Source of the DNA: Candidatus Thorarchaeota archaeon
GTDB lineage: Archaea; Asgardarchaeota; Thorarchaeia; Thorarchaeales; Thorarchaeaceae
DNA length: 57,331 bases
Assembly (NCBI GenBank): GCA_016840855.1
Contig: JAEORO010000025.1
Span: 1 to 57,331, forward strand
Direction: 5' to 3'
The notes below the pieces were generated by a model. The model made no database searches, was not told the origin of the DNA, and saw nothing but the letters and a program-made list of their open reading frames with translations. Numbering within the stretch: position 1 is the stretch's first letter; every line of letters begins with the position of its first letter. A program made the position numbers and the translations under genes. Positions 15,514-24,392 of the stretch are shown piece by piece.

Positions 15514-17364
15514 TTAGTCCGACATATATGGGTCTTCATCCATGTTGATATCGGCATAACCGACATCTCTCAAGAGATCCTCGATGGACTCAGCACCTGT
15601 TACCCAAGATAACGCCCATCGACCATCTTCTTGTAGATATAGCTCAACATCAGGGAGATCTCCAAGTAAATTGTGGTCCATCTCAATAGCATCTTGATAA
15701 GCACCTGCTAATGCCAATACAAAGCAAGAACCCCTTACATTTTCTAATTCGCCTACAGGAATGCCATCACCCATCAATCCCCCTGGTGTAGTCAGGAGTC
15801 TGTTATCTCTTGTAAACCAAACTTCATCTGTGTTTGGCCTGTAGAACTGAGTTATCTCTCCATCTGAATCACAAGTTATGTCAACTAAGCGGACTGTGGT
15901 CTGAGGTCTTATATGGAGGTCTCTAATTGGAACTACAGGGAAATGTTGCTTCACCAGCACATGATCAGCAACACTGTTGAAGACGCTGAAGTTTCCTATA
16001 ACAATATGTTCAGGATGCCAAAAGCTTCTTACTAATCCTTCAATATCATATGATTTTAGATGGAGCTCAACAAGTCTAGCTCTCACAACATCTTCTAATG
16101 TCCCTGTCAACATCTCTTGTTCCATTATGTACTGCATTCCATTAAGATTCAATCCACTATATTTCTCGTGGTAGCTATTCCATATTTCCTTGATTTCATC
16201 GAGTGTTGACACACTCTCGATTCTTTCAATTGTCTTCTTCTCAAAATCCTCAGCATCTTCAGAAACATATTCTCTTCTATTCTCAGGAAATATTGACCGA
16301 ACCTCTAGAGCCTCAACAATAATCATGGACGCCAGTGCTGTAATTCCTCGGCCTGACTCAATCATTATATTTGGTGGTGGGTGTTGACTGTTGCTTCTAG
16401 ACAGCTGCTCTTCCACGCCAGACACGAGGAGATGAGAGTACTGATACATATAGTCTGAAACATGAGAACTAGTGTAGTCAATCGCTAGTCCGCCACCAAA
16501 ATCAATGTTCGCAAGATTTGACAATCCCATGTTTCTCAGTTCCGTATAGATCTTTGTCAGTAGCCTGCCAAATTTTTCAAAAGATTCTATTTTGGTGATT
16601 TGTGAGCCTGCATGTGCAAGGATCGTTTGGACCGATTTTGCAAATCCCCTTTCTTTCAATAGCTTTACAACATCATATAGGTCGTGAATACTCAGACCGA
16701 ATTTGGAATCTCTCCCAGTGGAATGAGACCAGTGTCCCTCAACATTCAGATATGGCTTGATTCGCAATACTAGATTGGTTTCTTCAGCGTTGAACCGGTC
16801 AATAATCAAGCGAGATTCATGAACTGATTCAATAGAGATTGCTATATTATAGCCCTCATCCATACACTCCTTAATTAACTCCAAATACTCCGGGTCTTTT
16901 GCTCCATTACAGACGATGAGCCTATGCTTCTCGTTTGCAATGACGTTTTTAATTAGAAGTAGTTCTGCTTTTGTTCCAGCCTCCAGACCATATTCAGAAT
17001 CAGACCTAATAACGGCTGTAACACAATCCTTGCGTTGATTGACTTTGACTGGATAGATCCCAATGAACTTCCCTTCAAAGCCAAGTTCACTGATCACTCT
17101 TTGAAATGCGGCCTTAAGTTTCTTAATTTGGTACGTAATCAGCTGTGGTACCCGTAGAGTGAATGAGGATGTATATCCTGATTCGTTTCCATTCATCTCC
17201 TTGATTCTTTGAACAATCTCTCTGAAGGTTATAGTGTGTTCTTGAAGTCGTATACAGAGATCACCTTCCTTTGTGATGTCTAGAAAGTGAAGGTCGTTTT
17301 TATTCACACCATAGACTATTCTTGATTTATCTAATGACCAGTTATCATCTACCACTGCATTCAC
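15514..17364 (-). CDS. speA: Biosynthetic PLP-dependent arginine decarboxylase (bacterial/plant SpeA type)
   Basis: YPVKVNQ (PLP Lys), GLEAGTKAEL, CNGAKD, SKFGL, DFGGGLAIDY, ESGR, NFSVFNS, DITCDSDG, GAYQD, HNLLG. Confidence 0.88.
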   Translation of the reverse strand: MNAVVDDNWSLDKSRIVYGVNKNDLHFLDITKEGDLCIRLQEHTITFREIVQRIKEMNGNESGYTSSFTLRVPQLITYQIKKLKAAFQRVISELGFEGKFIGIYPVKVNQRKDCVTAVIRSDSEYGLEAGTKAELLLIKNVIANEKHRLIVCNGAKDPEYLELIKECMDEGYNIAISIESVHESRLIIDRFNAEETNLVLRIKPYLNVEGHWSHSTGRDSKFGLSIHDLYDVVKLLKERGFAKSVQTILAHAGSQITKIESFEKFGRLLTKIYTELRNMGLSNLANIDFGGGLAIDYTSSHVSDYMYQYSHLLVSGVEEQLSRSNSQHPPPNIMIESGRGITALASMIIVEALEVRSIFPENRREYVSEDAEDFEKKTIERIESVSTLDEIKEIWNSYHEKYSGLNLNGMQYIMEQEMLTGTLEDVVRARLVELHLKSYDIEGLVRSFWHPEHIVIGNFSVFNSVADHVLVKQHFPVVPIRDLHIRPQTTVRLVDITCDSDGEITQFYRPNTDEVWFTRDNRLLTTPGGLMGDGIPVGELENVRGSCFVLALAGAYQDAIEMDHNLLGDLPDVELYLQEDGRWALSWVTGAESIEDLLRDVGYADINMDEDPYMSD

Positions 17365-17387: not shown

Positions 17388-18860
17388 CTATTCCTCCTCT
17401 TCACGTATGGAGTCAAGCATTCCTTGGAAAGCTCGAGCGAGCTCGCCAATCTCATCATCTTTCGCAATGTATGTTGCATCTACTTGAAGGTCTCCGGTGC
17501 TAAGCGGTTGGTCTTTTATCCTTGCTGCAACATTTCTCTGTGCGAGATCCATTAGATACTGCAATGGTCTTGTAATAGTATTTGAGATGGCAACCGCGAC
17601 AATTCCTGCTACTAGGATACCTCCTATGGTCACAATGATGATGTAGGTTGCTGCTTCTGCATTCTGTTCTATGATTCTCGCTTCAAGACGTGGAATACTC
17701 TCTAAGACCTCATCCAAAGGCACTGAGATTACACAGATGTAACCACCTTTTCCGACCTGCGTGAACACTAGGATTCTTTCATCTCCACCTCGTGTATATC
17801 GCAATGTTCCTGAAGTCCCTTCAGGTACGCTTGTGATTTGGTCAATATTAGCTTGAGTCAATGCTGGTGAGAAATCAGGGTTCACTTCCACATTGAGAAG
17901 ATTTGGCACTCCACTTATGTACTCGTCATCTTCAACCTCTGGGTGTGCAACTACTCCACCATAAGAATCCAAGAGAAATGCGTATCCAGTTTCAAGGATT
18001 TCCACATTGATGATTTTGTCTTTGATGTCTTCTATGGTGATATCACCAGAGATGACTGCAAAAGGAATGCTATTTCGATACACCACTTTTCCTATCGATA
18101 TCAATAGCACACCATCAAACTCATCATAATATGGCTCGACAAATACCATGTCGCCATTTCCATCCCAGATCGTTTGATACCAATATTCTCCTCTTGGATC
18201 GTATGGATCAGCTAACCTTGCCGCATCTGAAATTGGTCCCAGTATGCTACCAGGATAGTTTATGAAGAGTCCATCATCAGCAAACGCAATATAGAGCCAT
18301 CTAAAGGCTAATTGGTTGTGTATTGCTCTAAAAATGTAGTCGATATTTGATACGCGCCCCAGATTGTCAGCGTTTGCAGGAATATCCGCGTAGCTGGAAT
18401 TGTAGTTTGTAGAATCGGTGTTTGCTATATACCAGCTGCTGTATTCCCATGAAACATGAAGGCCATAGTTGGGATCATAGTGATTGTCAGCTGGTGCTGG
18501 AGATACAGAGTCATCTTCAAACAGGAGGTCGTAATACACTTCTCGATATTCATAGGTTGAACTTGGATCAAATAGTGCTTCTAATTCCTCTGCAGCAGCG
18601 GCAATCATTCCTTCTGCACTAGCTAATTTTTGGTTTATCACCAGTGCTGTCTTTTGTGCTGTTTCAACCATGTTTGTTTGAATCTGATTCTCGAGGGCAA
18701 TGGAGCTTTGGTCGCTTGTTGAATTGCCTATTAGGTTCACAAAAGTCAAAGATACAACCCCTGTAACAGCTAGGGAAAGCAGTGAAATTGTTAGAAAGGT
18801 GATAATTACATTAGTTCGGAATTTGCCTTTCTTTCTGGTTTGTGTAGTTGATTGTACCAT
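17388..18860 (-). CDS. Transmembrane dCache_1-HAMP sensor lacking an output domain
   Basis: TM1; YDPRGEYWY...EPYYD...SGDI; GYAFLLDSYGGVVAHP; TM2; HAMP ITRPL...DDEIGELARAFQGMLDSI, then stop. Confidence 0.85.
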   Translation of the reverse strand: MVQSTTQTRKKGKFRTNVIITFLTISLLSLAVTGVVSLTFVNLIGNSTSDQSSIALENQIQTNMVETAQKTALVINQKLASAEGMIAAAAEELEALFDPSSTYEYREVYYDLLFEDDSVSPAPADNHYDPNYGLHVSWEYSSWYIANTDSTNYNSSYADIPANADNLGRVSNIDYIFRAIHNQLAFRWLYIAFADDGLFINYPGSILGPISDAARLADPYDPRGEYWYQTIWDGNGDMVFVEPYYDEFDGVLLISIGKVVYRNSIPFAVISGDITIEDIKDKIINVEILETGYAFLLDSYGGVVAHPEVEDDEYISGVPNLLNVEVNPDFSPALTQANIDQITSVPEGTSGTLRYTRGGDERILVFTQVGKGGYICVISVPLDEVLESIPRLEARIIEQNAEAATYIIIVTIGGILVAGIVAVAISNTITRPLQYLMDLAQRNVAARIKDQPLSTGDLQVDATYIAKDDEIGELARAFQGMLDSIREEEE

Positions 18861-18873
18861 CCCTTTTCACCTC

Positions 18874-21747
18874 CTAGTAGTCAACGGTTGATCCTCCAAT
18901 TTCCATTTGTGCCATCAAGACTCCCACCTTTTCAAACGCTTTCTCAATCTCTAACCTTACGTTTATAGTGTCTACAACAGAGAAATACTGTCCTTGAGGA
19001 ACTCTCTCACATATTGATTCTAGTAACTCTTCTGTCGTGATTGCTTGCCCCGTTTCCTTTGAGATTATTCTTCTATCCGTATCCGCACGATTTCTAAGCT
19101 CTTGTCCAACTCCAATTATTAGCAGATTGACGTCTAGATGATGATCTCGAATAAAGCCCTCGATAGTAAGTGGTTTCTTTCTCTTCATTCTATCCTCTTC
19201 TGTGAGGATTCCCTCCAAAACATCTAATGAGTACGTTTTAGAGCTGTTATCCTGTCCATCAGTTAGAGCAATCACCCACCTATGTTCACTGGACTCTATT
19301 TTCTCAAGTTCTTCAAGTGCTCTTCCAAGAGCATCGTAGAAGGCTGTAGCATAATTTGGATATTTCAGGGAATTCAAAGTCCTAACTATTTTGTTCTCAT
19401 CATCTTCGCGCTCACCCTTTATTGTTAGAGGGAGAAGTTCTCTATATGATGAGTTGAAAACTATCACAGATACTGCATCTTGAGGATTCACCTGACTATG
19501 GAGAATCTCTAATGCACCATTAACTGCAGCTCTAATTCTATTCTGAGCCTGCATGCTGCCTGAGTAGTCAATCACGAATGTTACACTTTTCTTGAACATT
19601 ATAGAGCGTCTTAGTTTCTCTGCTTTCCTCCGAACATCATGACTAGGTTTGTTCTGCTGATCAAGAACATCACCAAGTCGTTGCATTGCGAATACAACCA
19701 GCCAAAGCTCATCTGTTTGCTGGCCATAAGAGATTGCCTCATTATAGGAATCTTCTGCTTTCTTCCATTTTGTTTGGACTTGATGTAGCTCTCCTTTGTG
19801 ATAGTGGATGTAAGCTAGACTTCTCAAGTAGTCTATTTTCTCAGCGATTTCCTTGGCTTCATCATACCTTGATTGAGCTTGACTGTACCGACCATCACGC
19901 ATCATGACAAGACCCATAGCATCATATCGTCTAGCAAGACCATATTGATTCTGAATAGTCCGGTCAATAGCTTCAGCATCCTCTAATAGCTTTAGTGATT
20001 TATCAGTATGACCTCTATCCATCTCAACCAGAGCCATGTTATGATAGAGCGAAGCAATTCTGATGAGCGCATCTTTCTCATCTGCTCCGTTCTCTTTTGC
20101 TTTTTCGAGTAGGTTATTTGCAATAATCATGGATTGTTCATAATAGTCCATTGCATTTCCTACATCTCCGCGTTGCCTGAACACATTTCCTATGTTCTGA
20201 AGCATTGTCTGCTGGCCAACATCAATCTGAAGTCTGCGACTGATTTCCAAAAGGTTCTGATAGTTCGCTAATGCTCTATTGAGGTCTCCTCTAATAAATG
20301 CCTGATTGCCGAATCTTGCAGCTTCTTGGAAACTAAGAAGTGCATCTACTGTGGTTCCGACTTCCTCATATAACGCCCCTGAAGTCGTTATTCCTCGCGT
20401 GAAATCTTGTCGAGCCATCTTGTTCACAAGGCGCGTCATCTCCGTAATTGGTTCAATTACAGATTGGGCTCTACGATACGACACAAGAGTAACAACTCCT
20501 GCAACAATTGCTAAAACAGCTCCCAGAGCTATAGTGAGTATCAGTGTCTGAGTTCCCACAAGATTAAGCATTGCTACTGCAGGCGCTATCACATCAGAAT
20601 CCGGAACTACCACAGCTAGCACATAGTCTGTGTTTGTAACATTTACGAAAGCCATGTGCCAAGTTTGTCCCCCTTTCTGAAATTCTTCTAGTCCCGAGTC
20701 TTCTACTAGAACTGATGAGCTCAATAGATTTCCAAATGCTACTGCCTCTGGACTTGTCATGCTACCGAACTCGAGCTCCTCAATCGGAAGCGGCTCATCA
20801 AATATTCCTAATTGAGGATGTGCAACAACGACTCCATCGCGATCAAGTAAGAATGAGTATCCATTCTCCAAGACCTCGAGATTCAACACATTCTCATTGA
20901 TTGTTAACATTGTAACATCTGCTGACACTACACCAATTAGCGTTCCATTATCATACCTGACTGGTCGTCCCATCGATATTACAAGTCCAACCGAAGGATC
21001 GATATATGGCTCCGTGAATACTATGCTGTTATCACTCGGATTTTGTGTAGCTACATTTGTGTACCAATCCTCTGCATTCGGGTCGTAATCTTCTGTTGGT
21101 AGTACTGGGTTTCCATCGTCGTCCTGTTGGAAATAAATGAGGTCATCAAATGGGTAATTTCTGAATAAGTGTTGGTTGGAAATTCCTAAATCAAATCCCA
21201 TGTATAACCATCTATAGTCTTCATTCATCTCATGAAGAGCTCTAAAGATGTTGACCATATTGGATGAAACGTCCAAAGCATACTGCGTTCCAGGAGATAG
21301 GTCATGAGGATCATCGTTATTCCATGCAAACCTTGGCATGTAATAGCAATCAGTTTCAAATGTGATATAATATGAAAAATACGCCTCTGTAATCTCCGGA
21401 TCTGTTTCAAAAGTCAAGTCCCCCCAATTAGGCTCCTCTGTTGAATCCCAGTAATAGCTATATCGAGGTGTTGCGTTGACTCTCTCATTGAATAGATCTT
21501 CGCAGTAAGCCTCCATCATATAGACTCCATCGACATAATTCTGCCATCTTTCTTCAATGAAAACGCCAGTGTCATTCGAAAGCCTGACTAAGTTCGCTAA
21601 CTCTTCAGCTTTCAACTCCTCCGCAGCATCAGCAGCATTAGCATTAGAAACATCATTGATAGCTATTATCGATAATGAAGAAATCACAAGAATCGGTATC
21701 AATGCTACAACGACAAACGTGACTACAATTCGCTTTGAGATGTTCAT
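18874..21747 (-). CDS. Transmembrane dCache_1-HAMP-TPR-vWA receptor
   Basis: TM1, dCache (YDPNAEDWY, EPYIDP, GYSFLLDRDGVVVAHP), TM2, HAMP (IEPITEM...EEVG), TPR array (NIGNVFRQRGD..AMDYYEQS), vWA with MIDAS IDYSGSM / TAFYDAL / LTDGQDN. Confidence 0.85.
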   Translation of the reverse strand: MNISKRIVVTFVVVALIPILVISSLSIIAINDVSNANAADAAEELKAEELANLVRLSNDTGVFIEERWQNYVDGVYMMEAYCEDLFNERVNATPRYSYYWDSTEEPNWGDLTFETDPEITEAYFSYYITFETDCYYMPRFAWNNDDPHDLSPGTQYALDVSSNMVNIFRALHEMNEDYRWLYMGFDLGISNQHLFRNYPFDDLIYFQQDDDGNPVLPTEDYDPNAEDWYTNVATQNPSDNSIVFTEPYIDPSVGLVISMGRPVRYDNGTLIGVVSADVTMLTINENVLNLEVLENGYSFLLDRDGVVVAHPQLGIFDEPLPIEELEFGSMTSPEAVAFGNLLSSSVLVEDSGLEEFQKGGQTWHMAFVNVTNTDYVLAVVVPDSDVIAPAVAMLNLVGTQTLILTIALGAVLAIVAGVVTLVSYRRAQSVIEPITEMTRLVNKMARQDFTRGITTSGALYEEVGTTVDALLSFQEAARFGNQAFIRGDLNRALANYQNLLEISRRLQIDVGQQTMLQNIGNVFRQRGDVGNAMDYYEQSMIIANNLLEKAKENGADEKDALIRIASLYHNMALVEMDRGHTDKSLKLLEDAEAIDRTIQNQYGLARRYDAMGLVMMRDGRYSQAQSRYDEAKEIAEKIDYLRSLAYIHYHKGELHQVQTKWKKAEDSYNEAISYGQQTDELWLVVFAMQRLGDVLDQQNKPSHDVRRKAEKLRRSIMFKKSVTFVIDYSGSMQAQNRIRAAVNGALEILHSQVNPQDAVSVIVFNSSYRELLPLTIKGEREDDENKIVRTLNSLKYPNYATAFYDALGRALEELEKIESSEHRWVIALTDGQDNSSKTYSLDVLEGILTEEDRMKRKKPLTIEGFIRDHHLDVNLLIIGVGQELRNRADTDRRIISKETGQAITTEELLESICERVPQGQYFSVVDTINVRLEIEKAFEKVGVLMAQMEIGGSTVDY

Positions 21748-21806: not shown

Positions 21807-23246
21807 TTATCCACTCCAAGTGCCCAGTTCATCTAGAAGCTTTCTTTCGAAATCATTGAGGTCTTGTTTCTTTTCGAGTGTGAACTCATCGTCAGACAAT
21901 GAGCCTTGAATTGCTCCCTCACCAAGTAGGATGATAAGGGTACGCCGCAATATTCTTCGATTTACTCCGGTTTCTTGTTCTAGATGACGAATGTCCAATG
22001 TATCAGTTCCACGGAGAAGGTTTCGAAGAGTTCCTTTCACTTTTTGGATGTCGTGTTTTGAAGGTGCTGGAATCTTCTTCTTGGGCTCTGTTCTTACAAA
22101 TGTGTTACCATCAATGTGTCCCTCGATTACATCACTCTGAATCATAGCTTGAAGGCTACGACGTAAATTGTATGCTGCTGGTCTAGGAAGCGTTCTTCTA
22201 AGAATTCTATCAAGTTCCTTGAGTTTTATCCTGTTGTGTTTAGATGTAATCGAATCAATGCTTTCTTGGATATACTCCTCTAGGATATACTCCTCAATCA
22301 TTTCCAATTGAGCTCCGCAAGACGTACAGGTTGACGCTTCTGGTGTTGTTGGTGCACCACAATTCCCACATTTTATCGCTCTTCTGTATAGAACTGTCTT
22401 TGTCGAACCAATCTGCTGTAGAATTACTTTCTCAGTCCTTGTTACCTTTCCTGACTCTTGGACTTCCCAAAAGCTAAGCTTATGGTTTTTTGTACTAACT
22501 ACAAGAAAGGCGACATCTGAAATGTCATCGGGGATCCCGGTAGCCATTGCTCTGGGAATGTCTTCAACATCAAGTCGGGCAATCTCATTCCCATCGATGT
22601 CCCAAATCCGCAGTGTTGAAGAATGGTCCCCGGTAATGAACAAAATTCGATCACTGAATGAAAGAACCGCAAAGACTGAAAGACCTGGACCTAATTGCAG
22701 TTCTTTTAGTTGGTAGCCAGCTGCAGTGAGGACTGTAACCAAACCACTCATTTCAGCTACGACTACTTCCAATTCAGTGTCCTTTGTTATGTCTTCAAGC
22801 CAAACGTCAGCGATAGGGTCTCTCATTGTTCTCGTGAAAATTGTATCCTTGTCATCATTGTATAGTATAACTCGGTTGTTTTCTAATGCAACAACTACCT
22901 CTGCTGCATCATCTCCGTCGATATCACGTGCATCACATGCAACAATATTACTCTCTAGTCTAATGTTCCAAACTGGACTTCCTCTGTGGTCTACAACAAG
23001 GACTTTTTTTCCTACTCCTCCCACAAGAGCATCTTTTCCTTCTCCTTCGATATCAGCTACTGCAATGCATCTGACCTTACTGCTCCACTTTCTAGCACTG
23101 CGAAGAATTCCCTTTGCATCAAAGACTCTGAGCTGGTCACCGTAATCTAGTGAAAAGATTTGAGTGCTGGCATCCTTTCTCTGTCTCACGTACACAGAGT
23201 ACACATTCGCAGAAGTCAACACATTTGCAACTGAGCGAATCTTCAA
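21807..23246 (-). CDS. FG-GAP-type beta-propeller + zinc ribbon + tandem PCI-like winged helices
   Basis: ADIEGEGKD, DIDGDDAAE and DITKDTELE loops; CGNCG-x9-CTSCG; LQAMIQSDVIEGHIDG and LLGEGAIQGSLSD. Confidence 0.7.
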   Translation of the reverse strand: MKIRSVANVLTSANVYSVYVRQRKDASTQIFSLDYGDQLRVFDAKGILRSARKWSSKVRCIAVADIEGEGKDALVGGVGKKVLVVDHRGSPVWNIRLESNIVACDARDIDGDDAAEVVVALENNRVILYNDDKDTIFTRTMRDPIADVWLEDITKDTELEVVVAEMSGLVTVLTAAGYQLKELQLGPGLSVFAVLSFSDRILFITGDHSSTLRIWDIDGNEIARLDVEDIPRAMATGIPDDISDVAFLVVSTKNHKLSFWEVQESGKVTRTEKVILQQIGSTKTVLYRRAIKCGNCGAPTTPEASTCTSCGAQLEMIEEYILEEYIQESIDSITSKHNRIKLKELDRILRRTLPRPAAYNLRRSLQAMIQSDVIEGHIDGNTFVRTEPKKKIPAPSKHDIQKVKGTLRNLLRGTDTLDIRHLEQETGVNRRILRRTLIILLGEGAIQGSLSDDEFTLEKKQDLNDFERKLLDELGTWSG

Positions 23247-23312: not shown

Positions 23313-24392
23313 ATGATGAGCAGTTCAAAGAGTTGCAGGGTTGGCTTTCTCTGGAGTCCTAGTCTAGAAACTTTCAATTTTGGATCAAAGCACCCAATTA
23401 AAGTCGGACGCTTTCAGATGGTGCGTGACTTTCTTGCTGAAAATGATTTCCTTAGCCAGCCAAATGTTGAGATTTTGACACCTCAACCACTATCTGATGA
23501 ACTTTTACGCATGACTCATACAATAGAGTATCTCGATGCAGTTCGAAGAATATCCGAAACCGGTGAAGGTGAGATTGCTATAGATACACCTGGATTTCTT
23601 GGTATTTTTGAGAATGCCAGCATAACATCAGGTGCAACAGTTACCGGGGTTCGTGCAGTAACAGATGGAATTGTAGACCATTTCCTCTCACCAACTGGTG
23701 GATTTCATCACGCCAAATTTGAGTGGGGCGGTGGGTTTTGCATATTTAACGATGTGGCTGCTGCTGTATATGAGTTGAAATCTCTAGGATATCAAAGAAT
23801 CTTAATTGCTGATTTTGATGTACATCATGGAAATGGGACTCAAGCTTACTTTTATGATGACCCAGAAGTCATGCAGATCTCTTTCCACGAAGACCCGGAA
23901 TGGATGTTCCCACATGATGGATTCATCGAGGATATAGGCGAAGGAGCAGGCTGCGGATACAACATCAACATGCATTTTCCTATGGATTCCTGCGATGACG
24001 TCTATAGATATGCCTTCGATGAGCTTGTACCACCCCTTGTAGATTTCTTTCAGCCAGAGTTCATCATTTTTCTCCCGGGTTTCGACGCTCACTATAGAGA
24101 TCGTCTTGCACATCTCAATCTGACAACTGACATTATCAGATACATAACTTCCTACTTTCACGATGCAGCTCATAGATTTAGTCAGGGTCGTTTTGGAGTT
24201 CTTGCGGGGGGTGGCTATACTAATGAATCATTCAAATGGGGTATTGGAATTGTAATGTCTGTCCTCTCAGGCTACAATTATGAACCACCTAAGCAAGAAC
24301 CACCATTTGAAGACGATGAAGAAACATGGACTGCTGTTAAACATAATGTTGAGAAGGTCAAACGATTAGTTTTTCCGATTCTAGGTCTTTAG
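23313..24392 (+). CDS. Zn-dependent histone deacetylase/AcuC/acetylpolyamine amidohydrolase family protein
   Basis: HPIK, GGFHHA, GFCIFND, DFDVHHGNG, GFDAH, GGGY. Confidence 0.92.
   Translation: MMSSSKSCRVGFLWSPSLETFNFGSKHPIKVGRFQMVRDFLAENDFLSQPNVEILTPQPLSDELLRMTHTIEYLDAVRRISETGEGEIAIDTPGFLGIFENASITSGATVTGVRAVTDGIVDHFLSPTGGFHHAKFEWGGGFCIFNDVAAAVYELKSLGYQRILIADFDVHHGNGTQAYFYDDPEVMQISFHEDPEWMFPHDGFIEDIGEGAGCGYNINMHFPMDSCDDVYRYAFDELVPPLVDFFQPEFIIFLPGFDAHYRDRLAHLNLTTDIIRYITSYFHDAAHRFSQGRFGVLAGGGYTNESFKWGIGIVMSVLSGYNYEPPKQEPPFEDDEETWTAVKHNVEKVKRLVFPILGL

Follow-up and report, generated by a model that had tools for sequence, protein, structure and literature searches.

The window analysed here, the whole stretch of 57,331 nucleotides from a Thorarchaeota genome, raises the question of whether two adjacent genes for paralogous two-TM receptors with extracellular dCache_1 domains encode relatives of alpha2delta and CACHD1, the Cache-VWA auxiliary subunits of eukaryotic calcium channels, as the original prediction had it. 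That interpretation as a whole is partly supported. The two open reading frames, of 490 and 957 amino acids, were as described and are separated by 13 bp, and all four strings quoted from the 490-aa protein are present in it (Table 1). Orthologues of the 490-aa protein (56-95% identity) and of the 957-aa protein (59-93% identity) carry mostly Thorarchaeota names. At each of the 14 loci examined, the 957-type gene is immediately followed, on its downstream side, by the 490-type gene. The 957-type gene was found in 37 of the 151 genomes of the phylum sample, which takes in 8 of 27 family codes.

Table 1. Features of the receptor locus, with positions in the window and residue ranges in the proteins.
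Feature	Position	Strand	Basis and remarks
SpeA-type arginine decarboxylase homologue (PLP-dependent, biosynthetic)	15514..17364	-	23 bp downstream of 490-aa gene
490-aa receptor gene (P0001)	17388..18860	-	ORF; TM1, extended dCache_1, TM2, HAMP; without output domain
490-aa protein HAMP, residues 425-487	17400..17588	-	E 4.9e-8, 33.6 bits, cut-off 25
490-aa protein TM2, residues 407-425	17586..17642	-	hydropathy 2.93
490-aa protein Pfam dCache_1 match, residues 139-375	17736..18446	-	E 3.7e-13, 50 bits, cut-off 45
490-aa protein VWA_N-equivalent segment, residues 97-235	18156..18572	-	alignment A2; holds the strings quoted in the original prediction
490-aa protein amino-acid motif, N-terminal half (Y220, R223, W227, Y228)	18177..18203	-	aligned to PctB motif
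490-aa protein TM1, residues 14-32	18765..18821	-	hydropathy; 4 K/R before TM1
957-aa receptor gene (P0002)	18874..21747	-	ORF; TM1, extended dCache_1, TM2, HAMP-like linker, TPRs, VWA
957-aa protein cytoplasmic VWA, MIDAS intact, residues 722-885	19093..19584	-	VWA_2 E 9.1e-15, VWA 8.1e-10
957-aa protein cytoplasmic TPR array, residues 480-700	19648..20310	-	TPR_12 E 2.1e-16, TPR_2 8.3e-13, TPR_1 1.8e-7
957-aa protein putative HAMP-like linker, residues 425-478	20314..20475	-	weak NCBIfam match 406-469, E 0.024
957-aa protein TM2, residues 401-419	20491..20547	-	hydropathy 2.66; RR after TM2
957-aa protein extracellular sensor domain, residues 26-400	20548..21672	-	Pfam dCache_1 match at 217-379
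957-aa protein VWA_N-equivalent Cache segment, residues 80-240, ends YDPNAEDWY	21028..21510	-	alignment A3
957-aa protein TM1, residues 7-25	21673..21729	-	hydropathy 2.91; 2 K/R before TM1
479-aa beta-propeller-like protein with zinc ribbon	21807..23246	-	59 bp upstream of 957-aa gene

Hydropathy gives two TM helices for each receptor. As basic residues occur both N-terminally and just behind TM2 in the two proteins, the positive-inside rule would place the N terminus and the TPR-VWA part inside and the Cache domain outside. The claim that the 957-aa paralog has the same Cache layout and carries a VWA on the other side of the membrane agrees with Pfam and hydropathy, insofar as the sidedness follows from this rule. 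In alpha2delta-1 and CACHD1, the VWA is inserted within the Cache domain, whereas the Cache domain of the 957-aa protein is free of an insert and its VWA would be cytoplasmic. Pfam HAMP gave no match at E<=10 in the 957-aa protein, and its residues 429-477 fall within the predicted dimer interface of the complex model described below; the 490-aa protein ends 3 residues past its HAMP domain.

The direct comparison by HMM gave a divided answer: dCache_1 was matched by both proteins, at 50 bits and, for the 957-aa protein, 55.8 bits (E 6.3e-15), while the expected Pfam VWA_N had no match at E<=10 on either receptor, nor elsewhere in the genome (92% complete). Across the full domain, amino-acid chemoreceptors of bacteria led the PDB matches, both by sequence (PctB at 1.3e-9 vs alpha2delta-1 at 0.006, and Mlp24 at 1.7e-12 vs CACHD1 at 6.6e-7) and by Foldseek, where alpha2delta-1 came up no earlier than rank 33. 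By VIA, the model of the 490-aa dCache_1 domain aligned to Mlp37 with Z 21.3 and to alpha2delta-1 with Z 20.4, the latter over 286 aligned residues that cross a model region of pLDDT 50-67. The 490-aa segment as a single sequence (residues 97-215) gave no match at E<=10 in the PDB. Profile A2, made of the pre-motif segment of 15 members of the 490-aa family, matched alpha2delta-1 there as the sole family (13 of 14 distinct sequences, the rest being one spurious match), colinearly over about 99 positions at a marginal E of 0.065-0.18 (16.7 bits), and matched no bacterial chain, though PctA and PctB carry the motif; the equivalent segment profile of the 957-aa family gave no PDB match. The alpha2delta-1 strings given in the prediction do appear in the HMMER alignment, at chain residues ~152-246, with the VWA directly after. 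The YD.R..WY motif itself is a generic amino-acid motif, mapped into VWA_N earlier by Gumerov et al. 2022 (PMC8915833). When models of the N-part were run on 10 bacterial dCache_1 receptors, a small outgroup from 4 genomes, none scored above 8 bits.

The kinship is carried by Asgard intermediates of the Heimdall group. Searched against 1.84 billion representatives, A2 matched only 120 proteins at E<=0.001, including the VWA-inserted P0264 (3e-13), then P0322, P0347, P0350 and P0359; among 20 library matches looked up, the 7 that carry organism names were Asgard in 5 cases, giant virus in 2 and bacterial in 0. P0347 is Asgard, being 99% identical to a stretch of the Asgard genome G171, with full-length homologues in 11 further Asgard genomes. 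The VWA-inserted type is present in three more-or-less separate Asgard families, with the VWA inside the Cache domain at about residues 216-390 in 8 of 8 such ORFs, and among the 80 loci kept in a GTDB-wide scan 6 were full-length, all 6 from Hod-, Heimdall- or Kariarchaeota. The VWA of the Heimdall-group proteins is inserted at the same residue as in alpha2delta/CACHD1. Profile A5 of this Asgard alpha2delta-like (VWA-inserted) family matched CACHD1 at E 3.5e-41 and alpha2delta-1 at E 1.2e-39 in the PDB, the latter in a single colinear stretch spanning both junctions. With the P0347 model (pLDDT 84.5), Foldseek ranks 1-14 were all alpha2delta-1 or CACHD1 (9e-31), and VIA aligned 455-510 residues at Z 22-26. 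The homology between the Heimdall-group family and the dCache_1-VWA module of alpha2delta/CACHD1 is beyond doubt.

By hhalign, this family was joined to the 490-aa segment (98.0%, E 2.8e-13, 123 columns) and to the 957-aa segment (98.8%, E 4.7e-17, 132 columns), and the reading of the receptors as Asgard relatives of the alpha2delta/CACHD1 Cache part is supported by this route. In the window's own genome, A5 matched as Cache proteins only the sensor domains of these two, with E 1.1e-12 on the 490-aa segment and, on the 957-aa sensor domain, 9.9e-15 for the C-part and 3.8e-5 for the N-part. The sensor domains of the window have a common origin with the alpha2delta module; given their link to the Heimdall VWA-inserted family and the homology of that family to alpha2delta/CACHD1, the window proteins are cousins and not rearranged alpha2delta. 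Sequence comparison places both sensor domains in a dCache_1 clade whose known members have so far come from Asgard archaea, eukaryotes and giant viruses, and of which the 'VWA_N-type' segment is the hallmark.

It seems quite unlikely that the two proteins are merely amino-acid receptors of the common prokaryotic dCache_1 kind, in which a generic YxxxxRxWY motif is joined by a chance upstream similarity to alpha2delta. Such receptors would agree with the missing VWA_N match, the bacterial best matches over the whole domain, the universal motif, the silence of the single-sequence segment and an A2 match to alpha2delta-1 that is alone not significant at E 0.065; yet the hhalign signal sits in the upstream segment and not in the motif, the segment is rare among the proteins searched, and it was matched neither in the bacterial outgroup nor in any bacterial PDB chain. 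Of the two outcomes that the prediction had named as contrary to it, the lack of a VWA_N match was observed, while nesting among the 10 bacterial receptors was absent, since these split off as the outgroup of the Cache tree (support 89). The claim that the 957-aa protein is a rearranged alpha2delta type, its VWA shifted out of the Cache loop and into the cytoplasmic tail, is hardly credible, even if one polypeptide holds both domains and the inserted-VWA profile weakly matches the 957-aa VWA (E 1.8e-8). It is contradicted by the VWA tree, in which the 18 cytoplasmic 957-type VWAs form a clade of their own (100, starred), parted by a long starred branch from the Asgard-inserted, eukaryote-inserted and VIT/ITIH-type VWAs; moreover, they reach 25-42 bits on the inserted-VWA model vs 79-91 bits for animal CACHD1-like VWAs, the TPRs stand between the membrane and the VWA, and the A5 alignments (hhalign) pass straight over the insertion point in both receptor families, leaving no scar in the Cache loop. 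On the strength of the separate clade and the low scores, Cache and cytoplasmic VWA form an independent domain combination, the VWA having been acquired independently. If the kinship is real but the Asgard Cache type (in Heimdall, the Cache-VWA type) was gained horizontally from eukaryotes or giant viruses, which we regard as unlikely, it would be uninformative on the origin of alpha2delta. Consistent with such a gain, giant-virus proteins (the P0285 cluster, named Mimivirus LCMiAC02, and P0291, named 'uncultured virus', whose contig is 650 kb long) together with presumed eukaryotic proteins (P0323, P0345) nest inside the Cache clade that holds the 490-type family (97, starred), the eukaryotic domains branch near the root of the ingroup, where the Cache tree lacks resolution, and not within Asgard clades, and the Asgard-inserted VWAs pair with bacterial VIT/ITIH-type VWAs (support 88), not with the eukaryote-inserted ones. 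However, the spread of the 957-type gene and of the VWA-inserted type over Asgard families, the tight and partly overlapping operons with archaeal neighbours, and the presence of VWA-less, VWA-inserted and fused states all within Asgard argue against it, as does a single clade of all VWA-inserted domains, a group named after the tree was seen, which the AU test did not reject (p 0.417). Descent of the module may well have run from Asgard archaea to eukaryotes.

From the complex model, the 490-aa and 957-aa receptors are predicted to dimerise with each other. The model scored 0.64 vs 0.01 for the highest-scoring of 3 controls, a mark that 58 of 80 solved complexes attain, as do 2 of 110 mismatched pairs (counts that hold only roughly, as custom alignments were used), and its runs had at least 78% of contacts in common, with a partner pLDDT of at least 78. 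Cache chemoreceptors and kinases are homodimers, and it is possible, if doubtful, that the two receptors homodimerise separately as bacterial Cache receptors do, the 490-aa protein signalling through another partner or only modulating. The complex test, run without a homodimer control, is blind to a heterodimer versus two homodimers; near relatives of a genuine partner frequently score well in it, and the pass may be due to solved homodimers of Cache receptors. Against separate homodimers speak the margin over the controls, the strict adjacency of the genes, a 490-aa chain devoid of an output domain, and the natural fusion of a sister Heimdall-type pair, both genes of which form one chain in P0264 and P0284; in the Cache tree, the first domains of these fused chains fall in the VWA-inserted clade (99, starred) and the second in the partner clade (96, starred).

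The 490-aa protein has 6 of the 6 amino-acid motif residues, counting Y244 and D273, the roles of the positions being taken from PMC8915833 and PMC10104139. Its motif arginine is kept in 24 of 37 close orthologues and in only 3 of 15 proteins across the phylum, and thus is not ancestral in this family, so that the best-looking match to alpha2delta is partly a reversion or convergence. Among 28 orthologues of the 957-aa protein, the Arg126-equivalent is kept in none, Y121, W128, Y129 and D173 in all and Y144 in 26, and each MIDAS residue (D727, S729, S731, T801, D830) in 28 of 28.

The two receptors, then, probably constitute a conserved Asgard sensor module in which VWA-less cousins of the alpha2delta module pair, sense an amino acid or amine and respond through a VWA. 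Each holds a dCache_1 domain enlarged by a stretch of some 60-70 residues that comes after the stalk helix and before the membrane-distal module's first strands, and TM1, the stalk helix, TM2 and HAMP would be the parts through which the chains pair. The 490-aa chain would supply a complete amino-acid pocket and HAMP with no output, and the 957-aa chain a pocket without the carboxylate-binding arginine, together with the output, in which the HAMP-like linker and TPRs would lead to a MIDAS-intact VWA that may bind a cytoplasmic protein partner. The neighbouring decarboxylase homologue matched NCBIfam PRK05354 at E 4.3e-107 (359 bits, cut-off 369), speA at E 1.9e-105 and Orn_Arg_deC_N at E 2.9e-23. 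A SpeA-type gene adjoins the Cache pair in 12 of the 14 loci and is divergent in 3 of these 12, where the linkage survives inversion; the 1.5-3 kb flanks of the Heimdall-type loci contained none. The constant linkage at the Cache pair points to an amino acid, its amine or both (arginine, agmatine or a polyamine) as the possible signal, and to a possible tie between the module and polyamine metabolism. The 479-aa protein, with weak beta-propeller and Zn_Ribbon_1 matches, is encoded upstream of the Cache pair in 7 of the 14 loci and may be a further member of the sensor system.

The two Cache genes of the window are complete open reading frames lying 13 bp apart on the minus strand, with their coordinates and those of the neighbouring genes collected in the table below. 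Each product carries one dCache_1 domain, the other Cache being the product of the separate gene, and the Pfam model (PF02743) scores above its gathering score of 45 bits in both, with 50 bits (E 3.7e-13) in the 490-aa protein and 55.8 bits (E 6.3e-15) in the 957-aa protein, which bears out the Cache assignment of the original prediction. The 490-aa protein adds a HAMP domain (PF00672) after its second transmembrane helix (residues 425-487, E 4.9e-8, 33.6 bits, cut-off 25). The 957-aa protein has no Pfam HAMP match at E<=10 and only a weak NCBIfam one (residues 406-469, E 0.024), multiple TPR families (e.g., TPR_12, E 2.1e-16) and, beyond TM2 and the TPRs, a VWA domain at residues 722-885 (VWA_2, 9.1e-15 and 55.6 bits; VWA, 8.1e-10 and 39.6 bits), whose MIDAS residues of the DxSxS...T...D pattern, D727, S729, S731, T801 and D830, are each present in 28/28 orthologues. 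By hydropathy, both proteins have two TM helices, with basic residues preceding TM1 and following TM2; because of these positions and flanking residues, the Cache domains would lie outside the cell and the HAMP, TPR and VWA parts in the cytoplasm, according to the positive-inside rule. The hydrophobic stretch 376-394 of the 957-aa protein, with two Asp inside, is read as the probable last Cache strand and stalk rather than as a TM helix. The homologues of the 490-aa protein (197 matches, 120 of them listed at 56-95% identity) and of the 957-aa protein (176 matches, 120 listed at 59-93%) mostly carry Thorarchaeota names, and the Asgard assignment of the pair therefore holds.

Genes of the Cache cluster and its flanks in the window
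Feature	Position	Strand	Remarks
SpeA-type PLP arginine decarboxylase homologue	15514-17364	-	616 aa; E 4.3e-107, 359 bits (cut-off 369)
490-aa protein gene	17388-18860	-	complete ORF
957-aa protein gene	18874-21747	-	complete ORF
479-aa protein, weak beta-propeller matches and zinc ribbon	21807-23246	-	59 bp upstream of the 957-aa gene
Histone-deacetylase-family gene	23313-24392	+	E 1.6e-71, divergent to the Cache cluster

The proposed resemblance to the VWA_N/first-Cache region of the eukaryotic alpha2delta and CACHD1 proteins is faint in direct comparisons. The strings quoted earlier from the 490-aa protein are all present in it, and the alpha2delta-1 strings given with them are printed in the HMMER alignment, with the VWA following directly. 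The expected match to Pfam VWA_N (PF08399) did not appear in either protein at E<=10, with a model built on animal sequences and HMMER filters that drop weak matches, nor in any of the five candidates scored genome-wide (genome 92% complete). In the PDB, the 490-aa protein matched PctB at 1.3e-9, alpha2delta-1 at 0.006 (in the post-VWA part) and CACHD1 at 0.046, and the 957-aa protein matched Mlp24 at 1.7e-12 and CACHD1 at 6.6e-7. The predicted model of the 490-aa protein (pLDDT 69.7 overall, 50-67 across residues 100-160) shows the dCache_1 arrangement, with a long stalk helix bearing two PDC modules and a TM helix on either side. Foldseek did retrieve alpha2delta-1 with this model, but only at rank 33 (E 5.6e-10), behind bacterial Cache domains; in VIA-align, the bacterial sensors gave Z 20-21 over 225-241 residues (Mlp37, PctA and Mlp24: Z 21, rmsd 2.1-2.8, 233-241 residues) and alpha2delta-1 (3jbr_F) gave Z 20.4 over 286 aligned residues at rmsd 4.2.

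A more specific signal comes from the segment equivalent to VWA_N ahead of the YD.R..WY motif. Residues 97-215 of the 490-aa protein found no PDB match by phmmer. The segment profile built from 15 members of the 490-type family across the phylum (A2) matched 14 distinct PDB sequences at E<=10, 13 of them alpha2delta-1 (E 0.065-0.18, 16.7 bits), colinearly over about 99 positions and in the same alignment as that of the original prediction, and it matched no bacterial Cache chain in the PDB. A fusexin match of A2 (E 2.1) was discarded as spurious, and the corresponding profile of the 957-aa family (A3) had no PDB match. Among 1.84 billion representative proteins, only 120 were matched by A2 at E<=0.001, while the dCache_1 total in the census of Gumerov et al. 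is given as 86,346 proteins in 31,910 genomes (PMC8915833). The segment models scored nothing above 8 bits on 10/10 bacterial dCache_1 receptors from four named genomes. The YD.R..WY residues make up the N-terminal part, one half, of the universal amino-acid motif, and were placed inside VWA_N by Gumerov et al. 2022 (PMC8915833). What matters in these comparisons is the segment ahead of the motif.

The link to the eukaryotic proteins is provided by a family of Asgard proteins with a VWA inserted in the Cache domain. A VWA immediately follows the motif in the A2 library matches P0264 (E 3e-13), P0322, P0347, P0350 and P0359, and P0264, P0350 and P0284 exceed Pfam's own VWA_N cut-off, Pfam having been run on 10 chosen proteins of the 120 library matches and the other 110 typed by custom HMMs only. 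P0347 matches part of an Asgard genome (G171) at 99% identity, and in a search of 400 genomes of the phylum its full-length colinear homologues of 26-38% identity were found in 11 further genomes, in three families, and not in the window's own genome. The VWA lies at about residues 216-390 in 8/8 Asgard ORFs tested, the dCache_1 match resumes behind it in 7/8, and 3/8 have sub-threshold VWA_N matches. A locus scan over one genome per GTDB species with the alignment A6, started from one peptide pattern of the VWA, which VWA-inserted Cache proteins of other VWA signature escape, kept 80 loci, six of them with the full-length match (Hodarchaeota 2, Heimdallarchaeota 3, Kariarchaeota 1) and the other 74 with the VWA alone.

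The profile of this family (A5) matched CACHD1 at 3.5e-41 and alpha2delta-1 at 1.2e-39 in the PDB, the latter as one stretch from the VWA_N end through the VWA to the post-VWA Cache with both junctions ungapped, and the next PDB matches were the VWA-only ITIH (118 bits) and the Cache-only PctA (60 bits). With the predicted model of P0347 (pLDDT 84.5), nothing but alpha2delta-1 and CACHD1 filled Foldseek ranks 1-14 (E 9.3e-31 to 3.1e-19), with a fall to E 8.6e-18 thereafter; VIA aligned 455-510 residues of alpha2delta-1 (Z 22.1-26.1) and 469-470 residues of CACHD1 (Z 23.4-23.6), and VWA-only chains reached Z 27.8 with 185 residues aligned. Outside Asgard, the proteins of the large library closest to A5 came from a coral and a sponge and bear the name CACHD1-like (E 1.7e-58 and 4.1e-57), with EukProt transcripts lower in the list. 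The Asgard VWA-inserted family is thus made up of true alpha2delta/CACHD1 homologues. The inserted VWA itself (P0347 residues 217-398) is nearest, by score and by structure, to VIT/ITIH-type VWAs; scores of 140-160 bits were obtained for bacterial VIT-VWA proteins, and ITIH1 aligns to P0347 with Z 27.8 at 29% identity.

In the window's genome, the sole Cache relatives found by A5 were the two proteins of the window (490-aa N-part, E 1.1e-12; 957-aa C-part, 9.9e-15, and N-part, 3.8e-5), besides two VWA-only matches. By hhalign, the segment of the 490-aa family aligned to the VWA-inserted family over 123 columns (98.0%, E 2.8e-13) and that of the 957-aa family over 132 columns (98.8%, E 4.7e-17), both alignments stopping at the VWA insertion point. 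Homology of the pre-VWA segment between the window pair and alpha2delta is marginal when compared directly, and for the 490-aa family only, and strong when compared through the Asgard family, and it is through this family that the common origin of the window Cache and the alpha2delta module is established. The part of the original prediction that saw in these proteins Asgard relatives of alpha2delta and CACHD1 stands on this ground, by way of the segment.

The window pair belongs to the extended-Cache clade of alpha2delta/CACHD1, a provisional clade and not a curated family, and fails membership of alpha2delta/CACHD1 proper, having no inserted VWA, no VWA_N match and one Cache per chain. With the first dCache_1 of alpha2delta-1 to -4 (CACNA2D1-4) and CACHD1 (PDB 9vlg, 8if3, 7mix, 3jbr; 8s7c, 9eq6), which consists of Pfam VWA_N and the Cache part behind the VWA, it has in common the double-Cache fold, the extra segment ahead of the YD.R..WY motif and, in the 490-aa protein, the full amino-acid motif. 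In the eukaryotic proteins, however, a VWA interrupts the distal Cache module immediately behind the WY helix, a second dCache_1 follows in the chain, and the whole is a secreted, GPI- or single-pass-anchored ectodomain, whereas the window proteins lack a VWA at that point, are two-TM proteins with HAMP (in the 957-aa protein a putative HAMP and TPR-VWA) inside, and are not known to have a calcium channel in their context. The alpha2delta subunits associate with the CaV alpha1 channel, and CACHD1 with Frizzled/LRP6. The Heimdall-group VWA-inserted proteins (P0347, P0370 and the loci L028-L044) come from the same phylum, have the same extended Cache and are likewise encoded in tandem, the gene immediately downstream being that of a VWA-less paralogue, but they bear a VWA outside the cell, at the position it has in alpha2delta, and a short cytoplasmic tail, in place of the HAMP or putative HAMP-TPR-VWA tails and the linked SpeA gene of the window pair, and form a clade separate from it in the Cache tree (95, starred). 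At L028-L044, an ORF of 419-490 aa follows downstream and either adjoins the VWA-inserted gene or overlaps with it, and the two such ORFs scanned have Cache/PDC-type matches and no VWA; in the family f14 (L034-L037), an ORF of 480-498 aa precedes the VWA-inserted gene and has no match to the custom Cache/VWA models. The best whole-domain matches of the window pair are the bacterial dCache_1AA receptors (PctA, PctB, PctC, Mlp24, Mlp37, CtaA, Tlp3), with which it shares the TM-Cache-TM-HAMP plan (the HAMP being putative in the 957-aa protein) and, in the 490-aa protein, the six-residue ligand motif; the bacterial receptors are without the extra N-terminal segment (PDB profile search; 0/10 genomic receptors) and end in an MCP signalling domain, whereas the 490-aa protein is wholly without an output domain and the 957-aa protein ends in TPR-VWA.

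In the Cache tree (insert excised, 103 rows, 284 columns, a quick IQ-TREE run under LG+C20 with SH-aLRT only), the 10 bacterial receptors split from all segment-bearing proteins with an SH-aLRT of 89, which is unstarred and comes with long outgroup branches. The Asgard VWA-inserted proteins were grouped with their partner genes (95, starred), the 490-aa and 957-aa proteins fell into separate well-supported Asgard clades, and the eukaryotic domains stood at the base of the ingroup, where the branching is not resolved; the domains with an insert from Asgard and from eukaryotes were not united. The clade with the 490-type family (97, starred) also includes giant-virus proteins and two presumed eukaryotic ones. 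Nested in it is a clade (98, starred) of Cache proteins of 500-600 aa, P0285 and P0291 with their neighbours P0273, P0275, P0288, P0300, P0303, P0312 and P0316, no member of which has a VWA; the viral cluster names in it are Mimivirus LCMiAC02 and 'uncultured virus' (a 650-kb contig), and the presumed eukaryotic P0323 lies inside it and P0345 beside it. The eukaryotic label of P0323 and P0350 comes from a composition reading only, and that of P0345 from a EukProt member in its cluster. Seven of the 20 library matches looked up were organism-named (5 Asgard, 2 viral, 0 bacterial) and 13 were without a name, as were all 10 of the VWA-related clusters looked up, one of which contains a EukProt member.

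The relocation of the vWA to the cytoplasm, also part of the original prediction, is rejected by the VWA tree (60 rows), in which the 957-type proteins have their cytoplasmic VWAs in a separate clade (100, starred), far from each inserted VWA, and the VWA was therefore not moved. A single origin of the insertions in Asgard and eukaryotic proteins is neither established nor rejected by the Cache tree, the AU test and the VWA tree together. One clade of all VWA-inserted domains, a group named only after the tree was inspected, was not rejected by the AU test (log-likelihood difference 4.27, p 0.417). In the VWA tree, the Asgard inserts have bacterial VIT/ITIH-type VWAs as their sister group (88) instead of the eukaryotic inserts, which lie in another group (89), the rows P0392, P0397 and P0443 labelled there as bacterial VIT having no VIT domain and no established origin; this pairing speaks against one simple origin of the insertion, except in the case that the eukaryotic VWAs evolved fast. 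Between the Asgard and the eukaryotic modules, descent may have run in either direction.

From the complex model we infer that the 490-aa and 957-aa chains would form one receptor. The model scored 0.64, the best of three controls reaching 0.01, and this mark was reached by 58/80 solved complexes and 2/110 mismatched pairs, counts that apply only approximately here owing to custom alignments; the runs have at least 78% of contacts in common, the partner pLDDT is at least 78, and the predicted interface follows TM1, the stalk helix, TM2 and HAMP. Homodimeric Cache receptors have been solved, because of which the pass may be owed to likeness with them, and the two chains may form two homodimers, one per chain, instead of a heterodimer. 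Natural fusions of the sister, Heimdall-type gene pair are known among metagenome proteins, P0264 (993 aa) and P0284 (863 aa); in the Cache tree their first Cache falls into the VWA-inserted clade and their second into the partner clade, and they point the same way as the one-receptor reading of the chains. In P0284 the insertion point lacks a VWA; the tail of P0264 is a zinc ribbon.

The amino-acid motif of Gumerov et al. 2022 (Y121, R126, W128, Y129, Y144 and D173 in PctA numbering) is complete in the 490-aa protein when aligned to PctB, with 6/6 residues at Y220, R223, W227, Y228, Y244 and D273. The motif Arg is retained in 24/37 close orthologues of this family and in 3/15 members phylum-wide; since it varies so among orthologues, the ligand specificity has probably shifted within the family. 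At window positions 18177-18203 (minus strand), the motif Arg is confined to close relatives, with Thr, Ser, Val or Pro at the position elsewhere. In the 957-aa family, the equivalent of Arg126 is Arg in 0/28 orthologues (Asn in the window's protein), and the other five positions are retained in 26-28 of the 28. [quoted passage not shown] In the dCache_1AM amine sensors PctD, PacA and McpX, according to the same account (Cerna-Vargas et al. 2023, PMC10104139), the carboxyl-binding Arg is lost and the aromatics and aspartate for the amino group are retained, both as in the 957-aa family, and the full amine motif includes a small pocket insertion. The neighbouring decarboxylase prompts the guess that the ligand of the 957-aa family may be an amine. 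From the gene context it may also be guessed that the receptor signal would be an amino acid and/or an amine (arginine, agmatine, polyamine), and that the output of the 957-aa chain would be its TPR-VWA part acting on a cytoplasmic protein.

Gabapentin and pregabalin act on the alpha2delta subunits, and CACHD1 serves as a co-receptor for Wnt. [quoted passage not shown] The word 'Asgard' is absent from the main text of PMC8915833, and such Asgard proteins may be among the 108 archaeal motif-bearing sequences of its supplements. Our search of literature listings found nothing joining Asgard or Heimdall archaea with alpha2delta, CACHD1, VWA_N or dCache_1, nor a description of the Heimdall-group VWA-inserted dCache_1 proteins. 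An Asgard Cache clade with the same extra segment changes the bacterial-donor picture, and the open donor question gains a concrete testable candidate, since there are Asgard members whose VWA sits at the identical residue and others in which the two chains are fused. The window pair stands for the clade's VWA-less branch and is therefore the natural comparison for what the insertion changed.

It is conceivable, though we hold it rather doubtful, that the Thorarchaeota pair represents the pre-insertion state of the receptor ancestral to the eukaryotic alpha2delta/CACHD1 ectodomain. The ancestral Asgard receptor would then comprise two paralogous extended-Cache chains, one of which would gain a VIT/ITIH-type VWA in its ligand-binding module in the Heimdall group, and a later fusion of both genes, as in P0264, would lead to the eukaryotic proteins with two Caches and one VWA. 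If so, alpha2delta would be inherited from an archaeal ancestor instead of being a bacterial gene acquired at LECA, and the receptor in its archaeal form would sense an amino acid together with the amine that its decarboxylation yields, this sensing being coupled to polyamine synthesis.

The gene order around the pair is conserved. Of the 151 genomes in the phylum sample, 37 have the window pair, and in 14/14 loci the 490-type gene comes immediately downstream of the 957-type gene. The SpeA-type gene adjoins the Cache pair in 12 of these 14 Asgard loci, the remaining two stopping at a contig edge; because it stands on the opposite side and strand, divergently, in three loci (L013, L014 and L016), its linkage to the pair has outlived rearrangement. 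A Cache-HAMP protein without output, predicted to pair with a Cache-TPR-VWA protein that has a putative HAMP, and linked to an arginine decarboxylase, would be an undescribed receptor design. By tblastn, the 1.5-3 kb flanks of the Heimdall-type loci L027-L044 contain none of the SpeA, beta-propeller, deacetylase and dehydrogenase genes. The 479-aa beta-propeller-like protein is encoded upstream of the 957-type gene in 7/14 loci, and the histone-deacetylase-family gene is retained beside the cluster in five of the 14 (L019, L020, L024, L025 and L026).
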